A DNA stretch of 64,000 nt from an uncultured Gammaproteobacteria bacterium. GTDB taxonomy: Bacteria; Patescibacteriota; Patescibacteriia; VMEV01; CAYQCH01. Each line of letters opens with the position of its first letter. The first letter of the stretch is position 1. Position numbers and translations under genes: made by a program. Of the stretch, positions 44,735 to 64,000 are shown in pieces. The DNA is taken from positions 24,798 through 88,797 of the forward strand of contig CAYGRO010000003.1 in assembly GCA_964352335.1 (NCBI GenBank), in the 5' to 3' direction. The notes under the pieces were generated by a model. That model saw nothing but the letters and a program-made list of their open reading frames with translations. It had not been told where the DNA came from and searched no databases.

Positions 44735-44892
44735 TGCCCGTAGGCTCTAGAGGAAAAGTGAGATTATCAAAGTTTTTTAGAAATGACCAATATACCCTTG
44801 CCAAAAACACAATAATCTGGTAAATTTTCTTTAATCTAAATTCAATTTGATAATGATTTTCAATTTGTATTATTTTACCTAATTTTAGCTAA

Positions 44893-49622: not shown

Positions 49623-49639
49623 TTTCTTCAACTGAACAA

Positions 49640-49795
49640 AAAACAGAAGATGATAGTCGAGCGACCTAATGGGGTCCGGGGTATTAGTGGCCCCGCACAG
49701 TAAATACTTGCGGGGTAAACTTCTGGAGTCGAGCTTGCCCCGTAAATGAACGGAGTGAATTCTACGGGGCGGCGAGCAGCGTAAACATTAAAAAA
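49640..49795. ncRNA. GC-rich, highly structured ~150-nt element between sufU and the sigma-like gene; candidate small RNA or terminator cluster (family unknown)
   Basis: Several CCCCG/CGGGG helices occur in an otherwise AT-rich genome (gggtccggggtattagtggccccg; gcggggtaaacttctggagtcgagcttgccccg; ctacggggcggcgagcagcg). A T-run hairpin follows at 49797-49830. Confidence 0.25.
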
Positions 49796-49815
49796 AACGC
49801 ACCACCCAACAAGCA

Positions 49816-50496
49816 CTAAGCTTGTTTTTTGATGCGTTCTGACGCTTGCTTGAATCGTGGCGAATACAATATTCGCAAAGCACGTTGATAATCCGACTGA
49901 GCAACCGACATAGCGATGTTCAGCAAATCAGCCACCTCAGCGAATGTTCTAAAGTACCCAGCAACATCTAGCCCATGACGAAGTTGTAAAACTTTGTAGG
50001 ACCTAATATGGATACCACGAAGAACATCGAGCGCTCCTTCTTCGAGCAATGTATACAAACGACGTGTTAGCACAACATCATCGTCAGAAACATCACAAGA
50101 GTCAGACCAACCGAATTCTCTGCGAATTCTTTCTGACTTAGTTTGACGAGGATTTTTTTGAATCAATGCCTCGTTTTCTGATGAATCTGTTTCTTTTGCT
50201 ATTCGTCGACTGAGCGAGAGTGCGTTTTCTTGTGTTGTCTGTGACCAATGGCCACTGCACCCTAAATAGCAAATAATTGCCGCAATTTTTGCAGAAATAC
50301 TTGGAGGCTTTACTCCAAATTTTTCTGCAATACGGTTTTGGTTTTGATACTCTTCTTCACCCAAACCATAGTAAATTTTTGTAAACGTCCACCCTTTTGG
50401 GCAATACGTCTTAATTTTTTCTATTCGACTTGAATCTAGTTCAGCCAAATCAAGAAGAAACTGACGCCGGTTATCCCAATCGATACCTTTATACAT
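49816..50496 (-). CDS. HTH protein with two sigma-70 region-4-like domains, transcribed divergently from the surface-protein array
   Basis: The C-terminus LQLRHGLDVAGYFRTFAEVADLLNIAMSVAQSDYQRALRIL fits the sigma-70 r4 pattern. A second, weaker r4-like segment (YYGLGEEEYQNQNRIAEKFGVKPPSISAKIAAI) lies upstream. Confidence 0.45.
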   Translation of the reverse strand: MYKGIDWDNRRQFLLDLAELDSSRIEKIKTYCPKGWTFTKIYYGLGEEEYQNQNRIAEKFGVKPPSISAKIAAIICYLGCSGHWSQTTQENALSLSRRIAKETDSSENEALIQKNPRQTKSERIRREFGWSDSCDVSDDDVVLTRRLYTLLEEGALDVLRGIHIRSYKVLQLRHGLDVAGYFRTFAEVADLLNIAMSVAQSDYQRALRILYSPRFKQASERIKKQA

Positions 50497-50614
50497 GAGT
50501 TCTCCTTTCTTTGAACTGTTTACAAAGATAACAGTAATTTATCCAAAAATCAATCAAAAAATAAGTGTAGAAAAAAATTAGCAGAAAAAGCTTGTTTTTT
50601 GTTATAATAAATTC

Positions 50615-53600
50615 ATGAAAAAGCAGAAAAGAAAAAAAGCTGAGAAAGTAGAACACTATTCGCCATCAAAAAAAGAATTTCATCTTCTTTCTAGCCCAGC
50701 ACCCGCTTTTGTCCATTTTTTCCTTAAAATTGGGCATTTTTTCCATTGGTGCTTTCATCTCTTACTTCCAGACAATTTCAAAGAAGACCCAGGTTTTACA
50801 GACCATGTGAAGCTATTTTTCATGACGCGCCACTATTCCTATTTGCGAAAGTTCTTTGTTGTGTGGATGTTTGTCATTACAACAACAATTGGTGTAACCG
50901 GATATAATATTTATCAAGCCAGAGAATTAGGTGCAGCCAATGCCACATTTCCTTTTGATATTTCTGGAAGTTATACATTCGATTCAGCCAGAGTCAATGT
51001 AACCGGAAGTGAGGCAGTGCTTTTATCTGTTGATCAAATTGACAATGACAATACAGCTACAGGTTTTGCCGGAGGAACATTTTCTGACACAAACTTTGCC
51101 ACCAGCCACGTAGGACTTGATGCAACAGGCCTCACAAATGGAACAGGAACTTTTACTTCACGAATAATAAATGCGGGAGGTTCTGTTGCGTGGAATCAAT
51201 TAGACTGGACCCCAGAAAGACCAATTCAAAAAGAACTTCCAAATAATAGCGGAATTGAATCTGCTTATAGCACAGGTAATATGTCTATGACAGGGAATGT
51301 ACTTTTAATGCATTTAAATGAAACAAGTGGAACCATTACTGATTCTTCTGTGAATGGGAATACTGCAACTGGAACAGGTATTACATATGCAAGCCAAGGT
51401 ATCTTTGGAACCGGAATTGATTTAACCGGAAATGGTGATAAAATTGAATCAAGTGCCTTTAATTATGTTTTTGGAACTGAAATTACACTAGCAGGATGGT
51501 TTCGATTTACCGGCCCAGGAACTGGTTCACCTAGAATTTTAGAAATCTCAAGACTTGGTGATTCAAACACACATGCTCTTGCGCCAGACGGAGATGGTTC
51601 TCTGCGTGCTTGGGCTGTTTGTAATAATGGATCGCGTGTAGGCTCTGCCGACGACCCAACAAACTATAACGACGGCCAATGGCATCATTTTGTTTACACA
51701 TATAGTAATCCAACAGGAATTATTTATGTAGATGGCGTGCAAACAGCTACAGCTTCTAATGCATGTGCAAACTTAGATGACGGGAGTGAGCTGATTTTGG
51801 GTGCAATTTCAGATGTAAGTGGTAACTTTACAAATGCACAACATGAATTTGATGGATACATTGATGAAATGGCTGCATTTAACCGAGCATTAACCCCAAC
51901 AGAGGTTCAAGACATCTATTTACGTGGTGCGTTAAGACAACAAATTCAGGTAAGAACATGTGACGATGCTATTTGTGATACAGAAGTTTTTGTAGGATCA
52001 GACGGAACAAATGGAACTTTTTTTAGTGAGCTTTTAAATTCAACAACTGGATTGCCAAGTCTTGCAATGCCCCTCCCTAATAATCAATACTTTCAATACC
52101 AAGTTACTCTAGAAACAGATGACAATGTCACAAACTCTCGATTGAGTAATGTTACTATTGGCCCAAGCCATTTAGACGGAGGTTCACCAACTATTCAAAA
52201 TACCTCTGGTATTGCTTATACATCATCGTTGGATAGCTTTACAGAAACACTCGGAGGTGGGCATACTGGAACAACAACTTATCAACTTTCCAATAATGGT
52301 GCGAATTTCTATTATTTTAACGGAGGTTCATGGTCTCCAGCTGTGAGTTCTGTTCAATCGAATACAGCTGGAATTATTGGTGCGAATATCACAACATTTG
52401 TAAATGACGTAGGTACAGGTAACTTCTTTTTTCGTGCCTTTTTAGGTTCGAATTTAGGGACACAAGTCATTGAATTAGATCAAATTGAACTAACATTTGA
52501 CACAGGTGGAGGAGGCGGTGGTGGAGGGTCTTCGAAAATCTTTTTTCTCCCCCCCAGCGCACCAGGTGATGGGTTTCAAGTTATCATTAACGAAAAAGCA
52601 GAACAAACAACAGACCAAATTGTAGACCTTACATTTAATGCTGGTAATGAAGTATCGCTTGTAGAGTTATCAAATGAACAAAGTTTTATAGAATCAATTA
52701 CTTTAGGACTAACACCAACTATTGAGTGGGATCTTTGTTCTGTGAGTGGAAAACCTGTTTCTAGAGATTGCCCAGATGGCGAATATACTGTCTATGCAAA
52801 TTTTTTAACATCTTTAGGACAACCTCCATCTCCAATAGTTTCTGACACAATCACATTAGGAGAAGAAGAAGAAGAAGTTGTTGAAGAAGAACCAGTGGTA
52901 ACTGAACCAGAAACCGAAACTGAAGAAACTCCCGATGAAGAAGTCATTATAGAACAAGAACAAAACGAACCTCCTATTACACCAGCCCCCTCTGAACCAG
53001 AAGAAACAACTGAACAACCCGAAGATGAAACTCAAGAACCATCTGTAATCGAGGAAGAGATTGTAGAAGAAAACCAACAAGAACCTACTCCAATTCAACC
53101 TTCACCAGAACAAACACCCCCGCAACCACCTATAAACCAGAACGACCCCACAACCGCTCCGCCTTCAGAAGTAAATGAAGGGCAAATCATTCAAACAGTC
53201 ACACAAGAAATTGGAACAAATAACTATTTACTAACTGTTTCTACAGGAGAAGAACTAGAACAGAATGAAAAAGTATTTGTACAATTTTTGTCTGGAGCTC
53301 TTGCTGGTCAAAGCATTGTTTTAGATGAATACGTTGCAAATGACCAAGAAATTTTCTTTTACACCCCACTCCAAGTAAACCCAAGTCCTGGTGATAAAGT
53401 AAAAGTATCTGGAGGAACTGTGTTTAAGCAAGAAACATTTGTCTCACCAAAAACAGAATCAACTGTTTCAGACTTTAAAGTGTCGGCACCTGAAAAACCT
53501 TCTCTTCTTGCGCTACAAATTGTAATAGCTATTGGCTTGTTTTTAGGCCTGTTTATTCTCTTTTCATTGTGGAAACAAAATACTGCCCTTACAACACTCA

Positions 53601-53653
53601 TTGAACATGAACACGCGAACTTATACCATAAAGGGAAACACGGTAAGCACTAA
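50615..53653 (+). CDS. Large surface protein, paralog 1 of 3 (N-terminal TM, conserved beta domain, LamG/concanavalin-like lectin domain, acidic P/E/T-rich linker, C-terminal domain and C-terminal TM anchor)
   Basis: 1012 aa. LamG signature FDGYIDEMAAFNRALTPTEVQDIYLRG. Gly-run GGGGGGGS. C-terminal helix LLALQIVIAIGLFLGLFILF followed by a basic tail. Confidence 0.6.
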   Translation: MKKQKRKKAEKVEHYSPSKKEFHLLSSPAPAFVHFFLKIGHFFHWCFHLLLPDNFKEDPGFTDHVKLFFMTRHYSYLRKFFVVWMFVITTTIGVTGYNIYQARELGAANATFPFDISGSYTFDSARVNVTGSEAVLLSVDQIDNDNTATGFAGGTFSDTNFATSHVGLDATGLTNGTGTFTSRIINAGGSVAWNQLDWTPERPIQKELPNNSGIESAYSTGNMSMTGNVLLMHLNETSGTITDSSVNGNTATGTGITYASQGIFGTGIDLTGNGDKIESSAFNYVFGTEITLAGWFRFTGPGTGSPRILEISRLGDSNTHALAPDGDGSLRAWAVCNNGSRVGSADDPTNYNDGQWHHFVYTYSNPTGIIYVDGVQTATASNACANLDDGSELILGAISDVSGNFTNAQHEFDGYIDEMAAFNRALTPTEVQDIYLRGALRQQIQVRTCDDAICDTEVFVGSDGTNGTFFSELLNSTTGLPSLAMPLPNNQYFQYQVTLETDDNVTNSRLSNVTIGPSHLDGGSPTIQNTSGIAYTSSLDSFTETLGGGHTGTTTYQLSNNGANFYYFNGGSWSPAVSSVQSNTAGIIGANITTFVNDVGTGNFFFRAFLGSNLGTQVIELDQIELTFDTGGGGGGGGSSKIFFLPPSAPGDGFQVIINEKAEQTTDQIVDLTFNAGNEVSLVELSNEQSFIESITLGLTPTIEWDLCSVSGKPVSRDCPDGEYTVYANFLTSLGQPPSPIVSDTITLGEEEEEVVEEEPVVTEPETETEETPDEEVIIEQEQNEPPITPAPSEPEETTEQPEDETQEPSVIEEEIVEENQQEPTPIQPSPEQTPPQPPINQNDPTTAPPSEVNEGQIIQTVTQEIGTNNYLLTVSTGEELEQNEKVFVQFLSGALAGQSIVLDEYVANDQEIFFYTPLQVNPSPGDKVKVSGGTVFKQETFVSPKTESTVSDFKVSAPEKPSLLALQIVIAIGLFLGLFILFSLWKQNTALTTLIEHEHANLYHKGKHGKH

Positions 53654-56600
53654 TTGTATATGAAGAAAAAACATCATAGACCAAATCATAACCACCCTGT
53701 CATTGCCTTTTTACTAAAGACAAGTCATTTTTTTCATTGGTCTTTTCATGTTTTACTTCCCGACTTTATCTCAAAAGTACCTAGTGCCAAATTAAACAGG
53801 CTTCTTTTCTTAAAAACTCGTTACTTTTCTAAGATGAGAACTCTTGTTATCGGGTGGCTTATTATGAGCATTAGTATTTTAAGTGTCACAGGATATCAAT
53901 TTGCAAAAGCTCCAATCATAAAAGCAGCCAATACTACCTTCCCTTTTGACCTAGCAGGAAACTATACTTTTGACACAGACAGAATAGCAATTGGATCAAG
54001 TCTTGCAACGCTTCCGTCGGTCGACCAAATAGATGACGACAATACTGCTACGGGTTTTGCAGGAGGGACGTTTAGTGACACCGCGTTTTCTGGAGGCTTC
54101 TTGCAATTAGACGCAACTGGACTTACAAATACCACAGGGCTTTTTACTTCAAGAGTTATAGACGCAGGTGGTGACGTAGCATGGTCGTCAGTGGACTGGA
54201 CACCTCAACGCCCCTATCAAAAAGATCTTCCCGACTCAGGATCAGCTGAAACGGCGTATACTGCTGGGAATATCGACATGAATGGTAATCTTGCATTACT
54301 TCATGCAGACGAAACAGCTGGTGCAACAACGATTCTAGATTCATCTGGTAATGCGAATAACTTCTCTTGTACTACTTGCCCTGCTTCTGGAGGAACGGGC
54401 CGATTCAATACAACCCTAGAATTCAATGGAGGCGAAACACTTGAGGACGCAGATGGAGAAACCTATTTAAACGGGCTTACTGCATTCTCATTGGGTTTTT
54501 GGGTCAAATCCGATGTCGTTGGAACTGACAGAGGCTTTTTTATCGGAACAGCCCCAAGTGGAAGTGATGACGGACTTACTATTCGTTACGACGATGCGGG
54601 CGCAAACGGAGGAGGAAATGATGTCATTAAAGCAGGAATAACAACAACCACAGGAACAACACAAGTCGAAAGCTCTACAAATATTCAAACAACAGACTGG
54701 CAACATATTGTTCTCACATGGACCTCTGGCAGTGCTTTATCACTGTATGTAAACGGCCAACTGGACACACCAACCAGTGCAGGAGCGACCGTAGGAGGAG
54801 CCATTAGCACATTAGACCGAGCAATACTTGGGAGAGGTGGAAAAGACACAGCAGCAGGAGCCGGGTGGTTAGGACTAATCGATGAATTCTCGGTTTTTGA
54901 TAGGGCACTCGCCCCAGCAGAAATTTCTGATCATTATCTTCGGGGTGCGACAAGACTTGGAATTCAAGTTCGTTCTTGTGACGATGCAATTTGTGACATA
55001 GAACCATTTATTGGTCCAGACGGAACAGCAAGCACCTTTTACGGTGAAGGCTTAAATACAACAAATGCACTCCCAAGCACAACGACACTTTCTTCTATCG
55101 TAAACAACCGTTACTTTCAGTATCAAATAGTATTAGACTCAGATGATTCGATTACAACACCTCAATCTTCTTCATTTTCTTTTGCCCCATCTCATTTAGA
55201 TGCAGGTGGCCCAACTATTCAAAATGCAACAGGAATAACATATCAAACAATCGATGGATTTGTAGAAACTCTTGGGGGAGGAAATACTGGCACAACAAGA
55301 TACCAAGTCTCAAATAATGGAACAAATTTTTATTACTTTAATGGATTAAATTGGGTAACGGCTCTCTCTGCTGCACAAAGTAATCCTGCTGGTGTTATTA
55401 ATAGTAATGCAACAACCATTGCAACTGATATTGGAACTGGAGACTTCTTTTTTCGAGCTTTTCTAAATTCAGCACTCGGACAACAAATTGTAGAACTAGA
55501 TGAAATTGAAGTTATTTTTGACACAAGCTCAAATAATAACGGGGGTGGTGGTAGCTCATTACTCTTCTTTAGCCAACCAGTCCCCCCAACCAATGGATTT
55601 GCATTAACAATAAACGAAGAAGCAACAGTAACAGAATCACCTCTTGTTTCATTAGGTTTTAATGCTGGCTCAGATATTTCCCTTGTTGAAATTTCTAATG
55701 AACCAAATTTTTTAGAATCAATTACATTAACCTACTCAAATCCACTTTCTTGGAATCTCTGCTCCTCTAAAGGAGAAGCACAAACTGAATGTATAGATGG
55801 TGAATACACCGTTTATGCAAAATTCTATAAATCATTTGGTCAAGCCCCTTCGGTCGTTGTTCAGGATACTATTGCCCTTCTCTCCCTCGAGAACATAGAT
55901 GCTATTGATAAAAACACTGAAGAGGAAAACCCTACTGAAGAAAAATTATCACCAATTGAAATCCCCGAAGACAATACACCACCAACAGAAGAACCTCTCA
56001 TTGTTGATGCTGAAAACCAAGAAGAAAATGAAACCATTCTCTCTCCCCCATCAGAAATAGTTGAACAAGAACAAAAGAAAGAACAGGAATTATTACAACC
56101 AGAGTCTACACAAGAAAAAGAATTAAATCTTCCCACCTCACCACAAACGCCTTCGGAACAACCAAGCCAACCAATTCCTCAAAAGACTCAAACTCTGCCT
56201 CAAACACAAGTTGTACAACAAGTATCACAAGAAATTGGCACTTCTAACTTTTTGATTAGTACAACATTACCTGCTGGGTTTGATGAAAACGAATCTTTTG
56301 TTATTTCTTTTACCTCTGGTGCCCTTGCTGGTCAAAGCGTGCTTATTGATAAATATGTAGCAAATGACCAAGGTATTCTTCTTTTTACAGAGCTTAAAAC
56401 CTCACCAACTATTGGAGATTTGTTTCAGCTCTTTTCTGGAAGATTTTATGAAGAAAAAACATTTGTCTCTCCACAACTTCCCCCCTCTTCACCTGTTATA
56501 ATTCAATATGACAGCTTTACTGACCAAAGATCATTTTTCTGGTTTCTCTTTGGGTTGCTTATTGTAACTATCACAGGTTTTGGACTCCTTGTACTTGTGC

Positions 56601-56692
56601 TCTTCCGATTATGGAAACAAAACACAACGCTTACAACACTCATCGAAGCTGAGCACAAAGAATTGTTTATGAAGAAAAGAAAGCGTAAATAA
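53654..56692 (+). CDS. Large surface protein, paralog 2 of 3
   Basis: 1012 aa, colinear with paralog 1 (TFPFDLAGNYTFD...VDQIDDDNTATGFAGGTFSDT...; LIDEFSVFDRALAPAEISDHYLRG). The linker and C-terminus are divergent. Confidence 0.6.
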   Translation: MYMKKKHHRPNHNHPVIAFLLKTSHFFHWSFHVLLPDFISKVPSAKLNRLLFLKTRYFSKMRTLVIGWLIMSISILSVTGYQFAKAPIIKAANTTFPFDLAGNYTFDTDRIAIGSSLATLPSVDQIDDDNTATGFAGGTFSDTAFSGGFLQLDATGLTNTTGLFTSRVIDAGGDVAWSSVDWTPQRPYQKDLPDSGSAETAYTAGNIDMNGNLALLHADETAGATTILDSSGNANNFSCTTCPASGGTGRFNTTLEFNGGETLEDADGETYLNGLTAFSLGFWVKSDVVGTDRGFFIGTAPSGSDDGLTIRYDDAGANGGGNDVIKAGITTTTGTTQVESSTNIQTTDWQHIVLTWTSGSALSLYVNGQLDTPTSAGATVGGAISTLDRAILGRGGKDTAAGAGWLGLIDEFSVFDRALAPAEISDHYLRGATRLGIQVRSCDDAICDIEPFIGPDGTASTFYGEGLNTTNALPSTTTLSSIVNNRYFQYQIVLDSDDSITTPQSSSFSFAPSHLDAGGPTIQNATGITYQTIDGFVETLGGGNTGTTRYQVSNNGTNFYYFNGLNWVTALSAAQSNPAGVINSNATTIATDIGTGDFFFRAFLNSALGQQIVELDEIEVIFDTSSNNNGGGGSSLLFFSQPVPPTNGFALTINEEATVTESPLVSLGFNAGSDISLVEISNEPNFLESITLTYSNPLSWNLCSSKGEAQTECIDGEYTVYAKFYKSFGQAPSVVVQDTIALLSLENIDAIDKNTEEENPTEEKLSPIEIPEDNTPPTEEPLIVDAENQEENETILSPPSEIVEQEQKKEQELLQPESTQEKELNLPTSPQTPSEQPSQPIPQKTQTLPQTQVVQQVSQEIGTSNFLISTTLPAGFDENESFVISFTSGALAGQSVLIDKYVANDQGILLFTELKTSPTIGDLFQLFSGRFYEEKTFVSPQLPPSSPVIIQYDSFTDQRSFFWFLFGLLIVTITGFGLLVLVLFRLWKQNTTLTTLIEAEHKELFMKKRKRK

Positions 56693-56697
56693 TTTCT

Positions 56698-59600
56698 ATG
56701 AAGAATAGTAATCATCATAAAAATGCTTATAAACAAATCATTCAACTAAAGAATGGTGTTCTTAAATATCTTTTACTTTTTCTTCATTTTGTTCAATGGT
56801 CTATACATCTACTTATTCCAGATGAAATCACAGATATCCCTAGTCTTAAAAAAGCCTGGGAAATTGTAAAAACACATCAAAGATTTTACAGGCTACGCTA
56901 TGCATTCGGAACACTCGTACTTCTTACTGCAGTACTTGGTTCATCTGCTTTTTATAGCTTAAAAACGAGTCCTCTCCTTTTAGCAGCTGCAACAACTTTT
57001 CCGTTTACTGTACCAGCAAATTACACCTTCTCCGCAACTGCTATTAGTCTAAATGCAGGGATAGCATCTCTTATTGCTATTGATCAAATTGACGATGATA
57101 ATACAGCTACAGGATTTGCTGGTGGTACATTTTCAGATACAGAATTTTCACTCACAAACTTACAACTAGATGCTACTGGTATTACAAATGGAACAGGTAT
57201 GTTTACTTCTCGAGTCATAGACGCTGGAAGCTCTGTTGCATGGTCTACCTTTAATTGGACACCACAAGCCCCCTACCATAAAGAACTCCCAGACAATGCA
57301 GCCATAGAAACAAACTACACAAATAGAAATGTTTCTATGGTAAATAATGAATTACTCCTTCATTTAAATGAATCAGGTGGCGCAGTAAGTTTTGCAGATA
57401 CTTCTGGAAATGCTGCAAATGGTAGTTGCGCAGATTGCCCTACACAAACAAATGGTCAATTTAACAATGCATTTGAATTTGATGGAGCTACAAATGAAAT
57501 AGAACTACCAAACTCAGTCTTAAACGGAAGCGGTGATTCTAGTATTGCACTTTGGTTTCGAACAGCAAATACGGGCCAACAAGCAATTATTAGTGGAGCA
57601 AATGGATCAAATGACAATGAATACCTTCTCTTTCTTCCAAATCAAACTACTATTGCCTTTTATACAGGAGAAAGCTCAGGAGGAAACACAACTTGGGCTG
57701 TACCGTCTATGGCAGACAATAACTGGCACCATCTCGTACTCACAAGAGATGATTTAAACAATCAAGTATCTGCTTATTTTGATGGATCATTACTTTCTAC
57801 ACAAGGCACCACAATTAACCCTGTTTCAATAGACCTTGGCGGCTTATTTCTTGGGCAAGAGCAAGATTCTGTTGGGGGCGGGTTTACTCCAACACAAGCT
57901 TTTGAAGGCGATATGGATGAAGTAGCTATTTTTTCTCGTGTACTCACCGCATCAGATGTAACCGCTATCTATGAAAGAACATTTCACGATATCCGCTTTC
58001 AACTACGTTCTTGCGACGACTCACTTTGTGATACAGAACTATTTATTGGCCCAGATGGCACAGCTGGAACTTTTTATGACGAATTAGGAAATGCAACTAT
58101 AAACCTACCTTCACAAACTATTACAAATCTTTCAGATAATCGATATTTTCAGTATCAAGCAACACTTACATCTTCAGACAATATTCAAACACCACAAGTG
58201 TCTTCAATTTCTGTAGGCCCTACTCATTTTGATGCAAGCACTCCCTCTATTACTCCATTAACAGGGATTCCATACACTTCACTTACAGGGTTTACAGAAA
58301 CTTTGGGCGGAGGAAATGTAGGAACAGTTCAATACCAAATTTCTAATGACAATGTAACCTATTATTATCATAATGGAGCCAACTGGGTTTCTGCGATTAA
58401 TTCAGCACAAAGTAATACTGCATTAGGCGTGAATGCTCAAATTTCAAGCTTTGTTTCAGACATTGGCACTGGTGACTTCTATTTTAGAGCATTCTTTTTC
58501 TCAACAAACGGAGTTCAGCAAGTTGAGTTAGATGAAGTAAGTATTAGTTTTGAAAATGACCCGGGTAATGGTGGAAACGGAGGAGGCTCTTTCATCTTCT
58601 TAGCTCTCCCTCCAACACCTCCAGCAGAAGGATTTAAGGTTTTGATAAATGAAGACAATGAATTTGCAGAATCTCAAAATGTCACGCTTTCTTTTAATGC
58701 AGGTTCTGACATTAAACTAGTAGAGCTTTCTAATGAAGAAACAATGACTGAGTCTACAACTATTAGCTATAAAGAGGAACTTGCGTGGGACCTTTGTTCA
58801 ATTCGTGGTGAAACACAAAATTCAGTTTGTGAAACAGGAGAAAAAACTGTCTACGCTCGTTTTTCAAAAGGTTTTGGATCTACTCCTTCAGATGTTGTTA
58901 GTGACACCATTATTTTAAATCAAAATGTTGGAACTCCTGTTGAAACACCAAAAGAAACTATAAATGAATCAGAAACAAATCAAACAGAAGAAGAAGACTT
59001 AAATAGCGAAACACCAACGGAAAATACAACCAAAACAACAGAGGAACAGCAAGAATCAACAGAAACTTCTGATGAAACACCCTCTACAGAACAAGTAGAA
59101 ACAGAAATACCTGTAGAAACAACTGAACCGACTCCACCCTCTGCTGAGGAAAATATCAGTCAACAACCTTCACCAACTCTAGAAACAAAACAAGAAACGA
59201 CAGAACCTCTGGTGGCAGAACAGCCCGAAACAGACCAACAACTTCAAGTAACACCAAATGGTATTTTACTAACCTCTTCTATTCCCCCTGGTCCTCTAGG
59301 TCAATCAACTATTCCAACAACTCTCACAGAACCATATGCTGGTTACTACAATGGAGCATTTATTATCTTTACTTCTGGAGATGTTGTAGGACAAATGGCT
59401 CAAATAGAAAAATTTGTAGACGGTCAATTCTTCTTTACTCCCCCATTATCTATTACACCTTCTGTAAATGATCAATTCACAATTACCATTCCATTACAAA
59501 CAGAAGACACAACAATGGTTTCCTCAAATAGTTCTGATCTTCAAGGAATAGCAACAATTTTCCGAGATCTTGTCTATCCAAGAGACCTCATTAGAACAAT

Positions 59601-59733
59601 CTTTTGGGCTGGTGTCTTTATTGGAGCAGGAGTAGCAATTATTCTAACGAGAATCCTTATGATTCTCTGGCAACACCACATGCTCACACATCATGCAACA
59701 AGCATTCCAAAACGCAAAAACAAAAAAACTTGA
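56698..59733 (+). CDS. Large surface protein, paralog 3 of 3
   Basis: 1011 aa, colinear with paralogs 1 and 2 (TFPFTVPANYTFS...IDQIDDDNTATGFAGGTFSDT...; GDMDEVAIFSRVLTASDVTAIYERT). Confidence 0.6.
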   Translation: MKNSNHHKNAYKQIIQLKNGVLKYLLLFLHFVQWSIHLLIPDEITDIPSLKKAWEIVKTHQRFYRLRYAFGTLVLLTAVLGSSAFYSLKTSPLLLAAATTFPFTVPANYTFSATAISLNAGIASLIAIDQIDDDNTATGFAGGTFSDTEFSLTNLQLDATGITNGTGMFTSRVIDAGSSVAWSTFNWTPQAPYHKELPDNAAIETNYTNRNVSMVNNELLLHLNESGGAVSFADTSGNAANGSCADCPTQTNGQFNNAFEFDGATNEIELPNSVLNGSGDSSIALWFRTANTGQQAIISGANGSNDNEYLLFLPNQTTIAFYTGESSGGNTTWAVPSMADNNWHHLVLTRDDLNNQVSAYFDGSLLSTQGTTINPVSIDLGGLFLGQEQDSVGGGFTPTQAFEGDMDEVAIFSRVLTASDVTAIYERTFHDIRFQLRSCDDSLCDTELFIGPDGTAGTFYDELGNATINLPSQTITNLSDNRYFQYQATLTSSDNIQTPQVSSISVGPTHFDASTPSITPLTGIPYTSLTGFTETLGGGNVGTVQYQISNDNVTYYYHNGANWVSAINSAQSNTALGVNAQISSFVSDIGTGDFYFRAFFFSTNGVQQVELDEVSISFENDPGNGGNGGGSFIFLALPPTPPAEGFKVLINEDNEFAESQNVTLSFNAGSDIKLVELSNEETMTESTTISYKEELAWDLCSIRGETQNSVCETGEKTVYARFSKGFGSTPSDVVSDTIILNQNVGTPVETPKETINESETNQTEEEDLNSETPTENTTKTTEEQQESTETSDETPSTEQVETEIPVETTEPTPPSAEENISQQPSPTLETKQETTEPLVAEQPETDQQLQVTPNGILLTSSIPPGPLGQSTIPTTLTEPYAGYYNGAFIIFTSGDVVGQMAQIEKFVDGQFFFTPPLSITPSVNDQFTITIPLQTEDTTMVSSNSSDLQGIATIFRDLVYPRDLIRTIFWAGVFIGAGVAIILTRILMILWQHHMLTHHATSIPKRKNKKT

Positions 59734-59776: not shown

Positions 59777-59923
59777 TTATTTCAAAAGCCCAGCAAGCCC
59801 CAAAAGCACAAAAGCAATACCACTAATCATTGGTGGATTAATAGCACCTTTTCCAAAAGTCACGATCATATAAAGACCTAGAAGTAATGTGATTACGTAG
59901 AGGACTGATTTGAATGGTTTCAT
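59777..59923 (-). CDS. Possible 48-aa two-TM micro-protein
   Basis: My own translation reads MKPFKSVLYVITLLLGLYMIVTFGKGAINPPMISGIAFVLLGLAGLLK. It is below the ORF-track cutoff. Confidence 0.2.
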   Translation of the reverse strand: MKPFKSVLYVITLLLGLYMIVTFGKGAINPPMISGIAFVLLGLAGLLK

Positions 59924-59989
59924 AAAAATGTAGTTATGTTTATGAGCTTAGTATAGCAAAAAAACTCACCGAACTGATGAGCTATTATT

Positions 59990-63228: not shown

Positions 63229-63280
63229 ACCTCTCCTCCCTGCCAAGGGGGAGATGCCCGATAGGACAGAGGGGGTATTC
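63229..63280. repeat. GC-rich palindromic repeat copy (cacctctcctccctgccaagggggagatg ... agagggggtattc)
   Basis: ctcc/ggag-type arms as in the other family members. It overlaps weak small ORFs. Confidence 0.4.
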
Positions 63281-64000
63281 TACAAATCATCAAAAGGACT
63301 TCTAGCTTTTGGTTTCGCTAATTTTACTTTTACCCGATCTCGAATTTCATTTTCTACTTCCATACGAGGCTTACCGTATTTAAGTCGTGATAATTCTGCA
63401 ATGGCTTGTTGAATTTCTAAATTATGCCCCTCATCTAATGGCAATCCTTTCATGCTAAATGGTTTAAGCGTTTGGTTTTGTACCAACAGTTTAACGTAAC
63501 TTGTATATTGCTCCACGTTTAAGACATCATATTCATTAAAGACAGGGGCAAATTCTTTGGCGAATGTTTCGGCATCTTCTACACCAATTTTAAACGCACA
63601 AATAGTACCAACGTTTCCAAAGACAGCATCTTTGATTTCTGAATCTCCATTTTCTACTAATTGCCCAACATATTGATGCGCAATAACTAAATTGAGTAAA
63701 TACTTACGAGCTTCAGATAAAATAATGGCAATAGAATCTGTTGTGAAGTTTTGGAATTCATCGATATATAAATAAAAATCTTTTCTATCCGCTTTTGGCT
63801 GGTCGGTTCTACTTAAAGCAGACATCAAGATCTTCCCTACAATAACCATCCCTAAAAGATGGGCATTTAATTCCCCAATTTTTCCTTTTGATAATTTAAC
63901 CAAAAGGATTTTTTGTGAGTCCATTAATTCTCTAAAGTTAAACGCACTTTTTTGCTGACCAATAATTGGTCGCATAACGTCATTGGCAACGAATTGATTT
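63280..64000 (-). CDS. C-terminal part of a P-loop NTPase (VirD4/TraG- or HerA/FtsK-like ATPase); the N-terminus lies beyond the window end
   Basis: Walker-B-like YIDEFQNF, followed by a conserved AHQ segment. The reading frame stays open upstream of the first Met to position 64000. Confidence 0.35.
   Translation of the reverse strand, partial: NQFVANDVMRPIIGQQKSAFNFRELMDSQKILLVKLSKGKIGELNAHLLGMVIVGKILMSALSRTDQPKADRKDFYLYIDEFQNFTTDSIAIILSEARKYLLNLVIAHQYVGQLVENGDSEIKDAVFGNVGTICAFKIGVEDAETFAKEFAPVFNEYDVLNVEQYTSYVKLLVQNQTLKPFSMKGLPLDEGHNLEIQQAIAELSRLKYGKPRMEVENEIRDRVKVKLAKPKARSPFDDL

Follow-up and report, generated by a model that had tools for sequence, protein, structure and literature searches.

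The 64-kb stretch of contig CAYGRO010000003.1 analysed here (64,000 nucleotides; hereafter the window, with a GC content of 37%) encodes a stand-alone protein of 226 amino acids (aa) with two tandem helix-turn-helix (HTH) domains of the sigma-70 region 4 type (the two-HTH protein; Table 1). The C-terminal domain is securely identified by sequence as a homologue of sigma-70 region 4, the link being transitive via the profile of the protein's family. For the N-terminal domain, profile–profile statistics and the predicted secondary structure indicate a second copy of the sigma-4 fold that has diverged further. The reading that we favour, and that stands in our estimate about evenly between right and wrong, is that of a DNA-binding transcription regulator composed of two tandem sigma-70 domain-4-fold units; from the sequence and the structure model we infer that the protein may bind DNA, may do so in a two-site mode, and may have a regulatory role. 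The family is very rare and fast-evolving, with the short form represented by the window protein confined to one lineage of Patescibacteria (candidate phyla radiation, CPR). By sequence, the relatives of this CPR-lineage form include longer proteins encoded on phage-like contigs of high GC content.

Domain architecture of the two-HTH protein

Searched alone, the window protein matched Pfam Sigma70_r4_2 (E = 0.083) and Sigma70_r4 (E = 0.1) over aa 168–208, with a score for Sigma70_r4 (PF04545) of 12.6 bits, which does not pass the gathering threshold of 24.1. The matches to the C-termini of RpoD, SigK, and SigE in NCBIfam (E = 0.002–0.03) and to SigA region 4 in the PDB (E = 0.003, aa 136–214) were stronger; in the latter, KVLQLRHGLD...FRTFAEVADLLNI of the window protein aligns with KVLKLRFGLE...ARTLEEVGKEFDV of SigA. 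The profile of the whole family recovered SigA/RpoD region 4 from the PDB at E = 3e-14, and four of the first seven members matched Pfam Sigma70_r4 (best E = 7.6e-21), as did P0009 (E = 1.2e-08); P0004, P0005, P0007, and P0009 pass its threshold in their own right (32–74 bits). The homology therefore runs via the family profile and the relatives, the window protein by itself being sub-threshold in Pfam; no GerE/LuxR match was obtained for it at E ≤ 10.

Sigma70_r2 gave no match to the window protein at E ≤ 10 in Pfam or NCBIfam, and region 3 likewise gave none. Neither region was detected in the other family members, at E ≤ 0.01 in the first scan or E ≤ 0.1 in a later one. The two domains and their linker fill the entire 226 aa. 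Because it lacks sigma-2, and with it the means of binding the beta' clamp helices and melting the −10 element, the protein is not a sigma factor. The first-pass annotation had described a 226-aa stand-alone protein with two region-4-like HTH domains and without sigma regions 2 and 3; this architecture is upheld by the family profile, and by the profile comparison of the two domains, the shuffling controls, and the AlphaFold2 model described below.

The C-terminal domain keeps the LRHGLD motif and region 4.1, and ends in a basic tail, and it differs from SigA in the recognition helix, which reads IAMSVAQSDYQRALRIL in the window protein vs VTRERIRQIEAKALRKL in SigA. The positions of the −35-contacting residues of E. 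coli sigma-70, which we take to be R584, E585, R588, and Q589, are occupied by M, S, Q, and S in the alignment to SigA. The close relatives P0002 and P0003 are also without the canonical −35 contact residues, and P0004–P0009 retain a canonical recognition helix, (V/L)TRERxRQxE. Because the distant members keep TRERxRQxE and match Sigma70_r4, the ancestral activity of the C-terminal domain would have been DNA binding of the sigma-4 type; because the sigma-70 contact residues are gone from the window protein, its own sequence specificity would not be that of a −35 element. The net charge is −1 for the C-terminal HTH, +3 for the N-terminal HTH, and +4 for the C-terminal tail, and the whole protein has a pI of 8.9. 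The proposal that the protein carries a duplicated −35-recognition module is thus not supported, given the substitutions at the four contact positions, the charge of the C-terminal HTH, and the loss of the same residues in close relatives.

The profile of the N-terminal domain gave no direct sequence match in Pfam or the PDB, and the region aa 41–69 has a generic Pfam HTH match, to Fe_dep_repress (E = 0.09). Evidence for its sigma-4 ancestry comes from profile comparison: the nine-sequence profile of the N-terminal domain aligned in register with that of the family C-terminal domain over 60 columns (hhalign E = 2.5e-5, probability 75%), in the order helix, [RY][YF][GC]L motif, HTH. The score of this alignment was 29.2, compared with 9.5 ± 1.9 (maximum 18.0) for 200 column shuffles (z ~10), and the N-terminal profile also scored 21.1 against three genuine SigA region-4 sequences, compared with 9.9 ± 2.1 (maximum 17.4) for 200 column shuffles. 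Against a primary sigma factor, region 4 (15.6, 40 columns) was favoured over region 3 (7.9, 13 columns). The two domains had also been considered as a sigma-3 followed by a sigma-4, a reading that we discarded since the N-terminal domain scores higher to region 4 than to region 3. The duplication is visible at the profile level only; BLASTP of the N-terminal half against the C-terminal half of the window protein was not significant. Separately, a JGI primary sigma factor (P0011, 521 aa) was seen to have, beyond its normal region 4, one more region-4-like copy (…VLALRYGLNGGSGLSEQETSARLDLNLRSVREVEGSALNTLG…), so that tandem duplication of region 4 occurs within complete sigma factors too.

An AlphaFold2 model built on the nine-sequence alignment has a mean predicted local distance difference test (pLDDT) score of 82.4; a single-sequence model (pLDDT 39) was set aside. 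In this model, both domains are helical with the same helix pattern: residues 7–20, 22–31, 33–43, 53–60, and 66–78 in the N-terminal domain (pLDDT 78–92; the last two helices constitute the HTH), and residues 138–152, 156–162, 164–173, 185–192, and 196–210 in the C-terminal domain. Between them lie a long helix (residues 86–114) and a low-confidence linker, with pLDDT of 47–67 in blocks of residues 101–140. The linker includes the motif SERxRxExGWSD (aa 121–132) in three CPR-type proteins, and its G129 is invariant in all nine family members. Sigma factors were the top PDB matches of the model in Foldseek. One domain superimposed on isolated sigmaA domain-4 chains (4g6d_A, 8cwt_B, and 8cyf_B) with a root-mean-square deviation (rmsd) of 1.3–2.4 Å, including 62 columns at 2.3 Å and 35% identity for 4g6d_A, and 1.3 Å for 8cwt_B. 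Alignments of the whole model to full-length sigma factors extended over 190–310 columns (E = 0.006–0.05) with TM-scores of only ~0.27, which corresponds to the superposition of a single domain. We also considered a truncated sigma pseudogene; this was rejected because the architecture and the N-terminus are kept in four short members, and the 118-bp spacer upstream of the gene holds no coding remnant.

The absence of regions 2 and 3 raises the possibility that the protein is half of a split, two-subunit sigma factor, contributing the domain-4 part, with a sigma-2-only partner encoded elsewhere. To our knowledge, split sigma factors are encoded by adjacent genes, and no region-2-like open reading frame (ORF) was found in the 64-kb window or in L001, a syntenic locus described below (a crude phmmer search with two sigma queries, best E > 1). 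The protein combines sigma-4-type domains with a long linker that loosely recalls region 3.2, and Foldseek does align the whole model to full-length sigma factors, albeit at the low TM-scores given above; the −35-reading residues are missing. Two-subunit sigma factors do exist, as in SigO–RsoA of B. subtilis, where one polypeptide is likewise without part of the sigma domains (PMC10141391), and in L001 a gene for a membrane peptide lies 5' of the two-HTH gene, which loosely resembles the membrane regulator of SigO–RsoA named in the title of a study cited there (reference 46 of PMC10141391). Unlike the SigO–RsoA proteins, the window protein has two copies of domain 4, has lost the promoter-contact residues, and has no partner gene nearby. 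In view of both sides, we regard a split sigma factor as highly unlikely.

A rare family with chromosomal and phage-like members

A HMMER scan of 1.84 billion cluster representatives with the window protein returned seven hits, including six relatives (P0002–P0007). The two closest, P0002 (309 aa, E = 8e-27) and P0003 (224 aa, E = 1e-21), align from residue ~4–10 to residue 211, and P0004–P0007 were matched at E = 5e-5 to 5e-4. In a word-indexed protein search, the full-length family profile added just P0008 and P0009, for a total of nine members; in the same type of search, the single protein found only itself and the N-terminal domain profile found nothing. Genome, metagenome, and viral contigs scanned with the close-family alignment yielded no further relative, and none of 80 dnaX loci, over half of them from Patescibacteria, contains a family member. 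PADLOC returned nothing for the window protein, and in the distant members it found no more than a region-4 similarity to the MzaA C-terminus. Our literature search found no paper on the family, and papers on tandem or stand-alone region-4 proteins did not include it.

All nine members have a common double-HTH core and linker motif. A third region-4-like copy is present in P0002 and P0007, and an additional HTH in P0009; such variation in the number of tandem HTH units is what might be expected of DNA-binding proteins whose target sites are repeated. P0005–P0009 possess an N-terminal extension, which matches DUF1699/DUF1699_N (PF08004, PF28505) in P0005–P0007 (PF08004 E = 9e-7 in P0007) and precedes the same two-HTH core, whereas in the window protein and its two close relatives this extension is missing and the first HTH domain comes first. 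A literature search on DUF1699 returned only papers on the FAM83 gene family and none on the domain.

The contigs that carry P0007 and P0009 are phage-like: both have a GC content of 69–70% and many short co-directional ORFs, with genes for an HNH endonuclease, a helicase, and an RNA ligase. The P0004 contig (62% GC) is bacterial-looking. Phage-like relatives bear on a second reading of the window protein, as a sigma-4 mimic or modulator of RNA polymerase that is of phage origin and was domesticated in a CPR lineage. With one or both domains, such a protein would occupy the tip helix of the beta flap, where sigma domain 4 normally sits, or would bind sigma-4-binding factors, and by competing with the housekeeping sigma factor would redirect or weaken −35-dependent transcription. 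Sigma-4 and the flap are common targets of phages, as exemplified by T4 AsiA, phage G1 ORF67, and P23-45 gp39. Consistent with mimicry, the C-terminal domain conserves region 4.1 and its hydrophobic core (KVLQLRHGLD vs KVLKLRFGLE) while the DNA-reading residues are lost, the C-terminal HTH has its slightly negative charge, the gene is the fastest-evolving of its syntenic block (28% identity vs 54–81% for its neighbours), and the Foldseek matches at 1.3–2.4 Å include sigmaA region 4/beta-flap chimera structures. However, in the phage-borne members the DNA-reading helix is fully canonical, an indication that the basic activity of the family is DNA binding, and the window protein is basic overall; we consider this second reading, the main rival to the favoured one, unlikely. 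A more specific form of it would cast the whole family as phage-derived sigma-4 decoys that sit on the beta-flap or titrate sigma-4-binding factors and shut off −35-dependent transcription, and that have been domesticated as a global brake in one CPR lineage. Decoys of this kind would explain both the lost DNA-reading residues and the very fast divergence, and appear to us distinctly unlikely.

In the window, the gene order is sufB-C-D-S-U (+), the two-HTH gene (−), three Laminin_G_3 (LamG-type) paralogues (+), a gene for a 48-aa membrane peptide (−), tRNA-Gln (−), and dnaX (−). The DnaX protein has its best matches in Patescibacteria (Komeili-, Buchanan-, Magasanik-, Falkow-, and Uhrbacteria), which assigns the window to a CPR bacterium. 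L001, the locus that encodes P0003, is collinear with the window, with tRNA-Gln, the 48/49-aa peptide gene, the two-HTH gene, sufU-S-D-C-B, and a gene for a C39-like peptidase. Identity between L001 and the window is 81% for SufB, 63% for SufS, 61% for SufC, 57% for the C39-like peptidase, 54% for both SufU and the 48-aa peptide, and 28% for the two-HTH protein. In L001, the peptide gene lies 56 bp 5' of the two-HTH gene, and no LamG gene is present. On the contig that encodes P0002 (JGI 3300072015), the two-HTH gene is preceded by dnaX, a 49-aa gene, and a Fur-family gene, again with no LamG gene beside it. The two-HTH gene has been kept vertically at one chromosomal position in these three related genomes.

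The adjacency of the two-HTH gene to sufBCDSU in all three CPR genomes suggests a regulator tied to the suf operon for Fe–S assembly, or to iron or oxidative stress, and the Fur-family gene on the P0002 contig, which is 68 bp upstream and on the same strand, would be in keeping with such a role in that one genome. Nevertheless, synteny between the window and L001 extends over everything from tRNA-Gln to the C39-like peptidase gene, so that common descent accounts for the adjacency; the suf and two-HTH genes are convergent and have no common promoter region; and on the P0002 contig a patatin gene intervenes between the two-HTH gene and sufU. The suf promoter is an ordinary one, with a conserved −35 element and extended −10 and no obvious operator; the −35 region of the sufB promoter (ACCCTTGCCA) is conserved between the window genome and L001. 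A link of the protein to suf or iron thus seems very unlikely.

The LamG-type array (50615–59733, + strand, 9 kb) begins 118 bp upstream of the two-HTH gene on the opposite strand, confirming the divergent arrangement noted at first pass. It consists of three tandem paralogues of ~1012 aa each with 35–43% mutual identity, and each has an N-terminal transmembrane-like segment, a Laminin_G_3/pentaxin-like domain (aa ~270–430), a low-complexity stretch rich in Glu, Pro, and Thr, and a C-terminal transmembrane segment. This layout, together with a short AT-rich spacer (24–30% GC) that has promoter-like sites in both directions at 50525–50557 (−) and 50600–50608 (+), could suggest a dedicated regulator of the array that acts locally in this genome via −35-like repeats in the spacer, which was the role first proposed for the protein. 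Yet the position syntenic to the window has, in L001, a two-HTH gene without LamG, and thus the array is better described as a lineage-specific insertion or expansion beside a pre-existing gene; the P0002 contig likewise keeps the gene without LamG. Nor did the spacer (50497–50614) reveal −35-like direct repeats beyond the short matches expected by chance in AT-rich DNA, and its promoter-like hits did not exceed shuffled expectation in a promoter scan. We consider regulation of the array by this protein quite unlikely.

Favoured mechanism and gene context

Under the favoured reading of a two-HTH DNA-binding regulator, the tandem domain-4 units would derive from an old internal duplication and would be joined by a helical and flexible linker of ~55 residues. 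DNA would be bound via the HTH domains, and the best candidates for the contact are the N-terminal HTH and the C-terminal tail, both of them basic; the flexible linker would allow the two domains to reach two half-sites, and the bound protein would act on a small regulon as repressor or activator. The sequence points naturally to a role in transcription, and this much of the first-pass annotation may be retained; two functions that it named, a −35-recognition module and an array regulator, are not supported, and nothing was found for or against a third, that of an anti-sigma-resistant transcription factor. The favoured reading draws on the DNA-reading C-terminal domain of the distant members, the varying number of HTH units, the basic N-terminal HTH and tail, the expression signals of the gene, and its vertical retention. 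Several observations weigh against this reading. The recognition helix of the C-terminal domain is acidic to neutral in this subfamily, with every canonical DNA-contact residue gone, such that this domain, at least, may serve protein–protein contacts. There is no candidate operator: the spacer holds no conserved repeat, and inspection by eye revealed no motif in common with the suf promoter. The two-HTH protein is only 28–34% identical between genomes in which SufB is 81% identical, which is unusually fast for a housekeeping regulator, and no partner or target gene is conserved with it past general synteny.

The 226-aa ORF is a real gene, with a Shine–Dalgarno sequence, a promoter-like site of its own, a terminator hairpin, and homologues (Table 1). 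The L001 homologue has GGAGG where the window gene has AGGAG. The promoter-like site comprises a −35 element TTGATT (50552–50557) and a −10 element TATCTT (50525–50530), and its 17-nt spacer includes a TG that would make the latter an extended −10, (TG)TTATCTT; with 8 of 12 matches, the site scores under the threshold of a simple promoter scan. This extended −10 resembles the TGnTAnnnT sites 5' of sufB, the 48-aa peptide gene, and the first LamG gene. More generally, promoter-like sites of the window genome and of L001 have a TGnTAnnnT extended −10 in common, often straight after a hairpin and T-run (window 50600–50608, 44815–44850, and 59930–59960; L001:180–200). The promoter-like site at 50600–50608 (+), TGTTATAAT, is followed by the ATG of the first LamG ORF after only ~7 nt, which would imply a leaderless mRNA or a true start farther downstream.

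The hairpin at the 3' end of the two-HTH gene overlaps the final codons of the ORF and is likely a bidirectional terminator common to the gene and the convergent suf operon.

Table 1. Features of the two-HTH gene and of the associated peptide gene (coordinates refer to the window unless prefixed).
Feature	Coordinates	Strand	Evidence or remark
Two-HTH ORF, 226 aa + stop	49816-50496	-	ORF list, ATG start; homologues P0002 and P0003; AlphaFold2 model
N-terminal domain, aa 1-80, putative diverged sigma-4-like HTH, motif IYYGLGEEEYQNQNRIAEKFGV	50257-50496	-	hhalign, shuffles, AlphaFold2
Inter-domain segment, aa 81-137, predicted helix 86-114 then low-confidence linker	50086-50256	-	AlphaFold2, alignments
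C-terminal domain, aa 138-226, sigma-70 region 4 (4.1 + 4.2) homologue	49819-50085	-	PDB, family profile, Foldseek
Shine–Dalgarno sequence AGGAG, 7 nt 5' of ATG	50502-50506	-	Direct sequence reading
Promoter-like site of the two-HTH gene (putative), TTGATT-17-TGTTATCTT	50525-50557	-	Inferred from sequence reading
Hairpin AACAAGC-ACTAA-GCTTGTT, T/U runs on both strands	49808-49826		Terminator scan and RNA folds, both strands
48/49-aa hydrophobic peptide gene, conserved (54%)	59777-59923; L001:218-367	- (window)	Just downstream of tRNA-Gln

The 48/49-aa hydrophobic peptide matched no Pfam family. Its gene is located shortly upstream of the two-HTH gene, on the same strand, in L001 and on the P0002 contig; in the window the LamG array intervenes. 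It is possible that the peptide serves the HTH protein as a partner in the membrane or as its regulator, or that the two are unrelated.

Several further features were observed around these genes. The 193-nt spacer between the convergent sufU and two-HTH genes (49623–49815) has ~51% GC vs 37% for the window and contains several strong hairpins, CCCCGCA...TGCGGGG and CCCCGUAAAUGA...ACGGGG, with fold z-scores of −2.8 (+) and −2.5 (−). It matched no Rfam family at threshold, the sole match being a weak isrK-like one (E = 0.01), and it does not look conserved in the corresponding spacer of L001; the spacer could encode a small RNA or merely consist of stacked terminators. Near the end of the window, an ORF of 231 aa (63280–63975, − strand) has similarity to TraG-D_C/TrwB coupling proteins and adjoins a 212-aa ORF without a family match; the 231-aa ORF appears to be a coupling protein of type IV secretion in fragmentary or shortened form. 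Many of the closest dnaX loci (L009, L013, L014, L016, and others like them) are titled "uncultured Gammaproteobacteria bacterium" (Third Party Annotation assemblies), and their DnaX proteins group with Patescibacteria; these titles look to be placeholders or wrong.

Relation to known systems and significance

Sigma-70 domain 4 is textbook knowledge, and stand-alone region-4 proteins are common in phages. The window protein resembles domain 4 of the group-1 sigma factors SigA/RpoD (PF04545) in its homologous C-terminal domain, with the LRxGLD motif and the same order of helices, and in an N-terminal domain that appears to be a diverged copy. It differs from these sigma factors in that sigma-2 and sigma-3 are missing, the −35 contacts are replaced, and domain 4 is present twice. 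LuxR/GerE proteins have a related four-helix HTH fold that serves as a stand-alone DNA-binding output domain, but the sequence signal of the window protein is specifically that of group-1 sigma region 4.

Matches in BFVD include stand-alone phage proteins annotated as "Sigma70_r4 domain-containing," such as A0A6J5S254 and A0A6J5LJJ3. Like these, and like the sigma-like proteins of PHROG 351/3512, the window protein is small and consists mainly of region-4-type HTH, and the longer members of its family match phrog_351 (E down to 8e-18). In contrast to the phage proteins, the window protein itself matches no PHROG, has a conserved chromosomal context in CPR genomes, and has two domains, with a family-specific N-terminal domain and linker motif. 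What is new is modest: a small, unannotated family with a duplicated domain-4 core, an N-terminal domain of its own, a SERxRxExGW linker motif, and a distribution split between CPR chromosomes and high-GC phage-like contigs.

For annotation, two labels should be avoided for the window protein: sigma factor, and regulator of the LamG surface proteins encoded next to it. If the favoured reading is true, the protein would be one further HTH regulator; if it were instead a sigma-4 mimic on the polymerase flap, it would represent a new cellular mode of global transcription control. CPR bacteria have very few recognisable transcription regulators, and a lineage-specific one would therefore help to explain how transcription is controlled in their reduced genomes.

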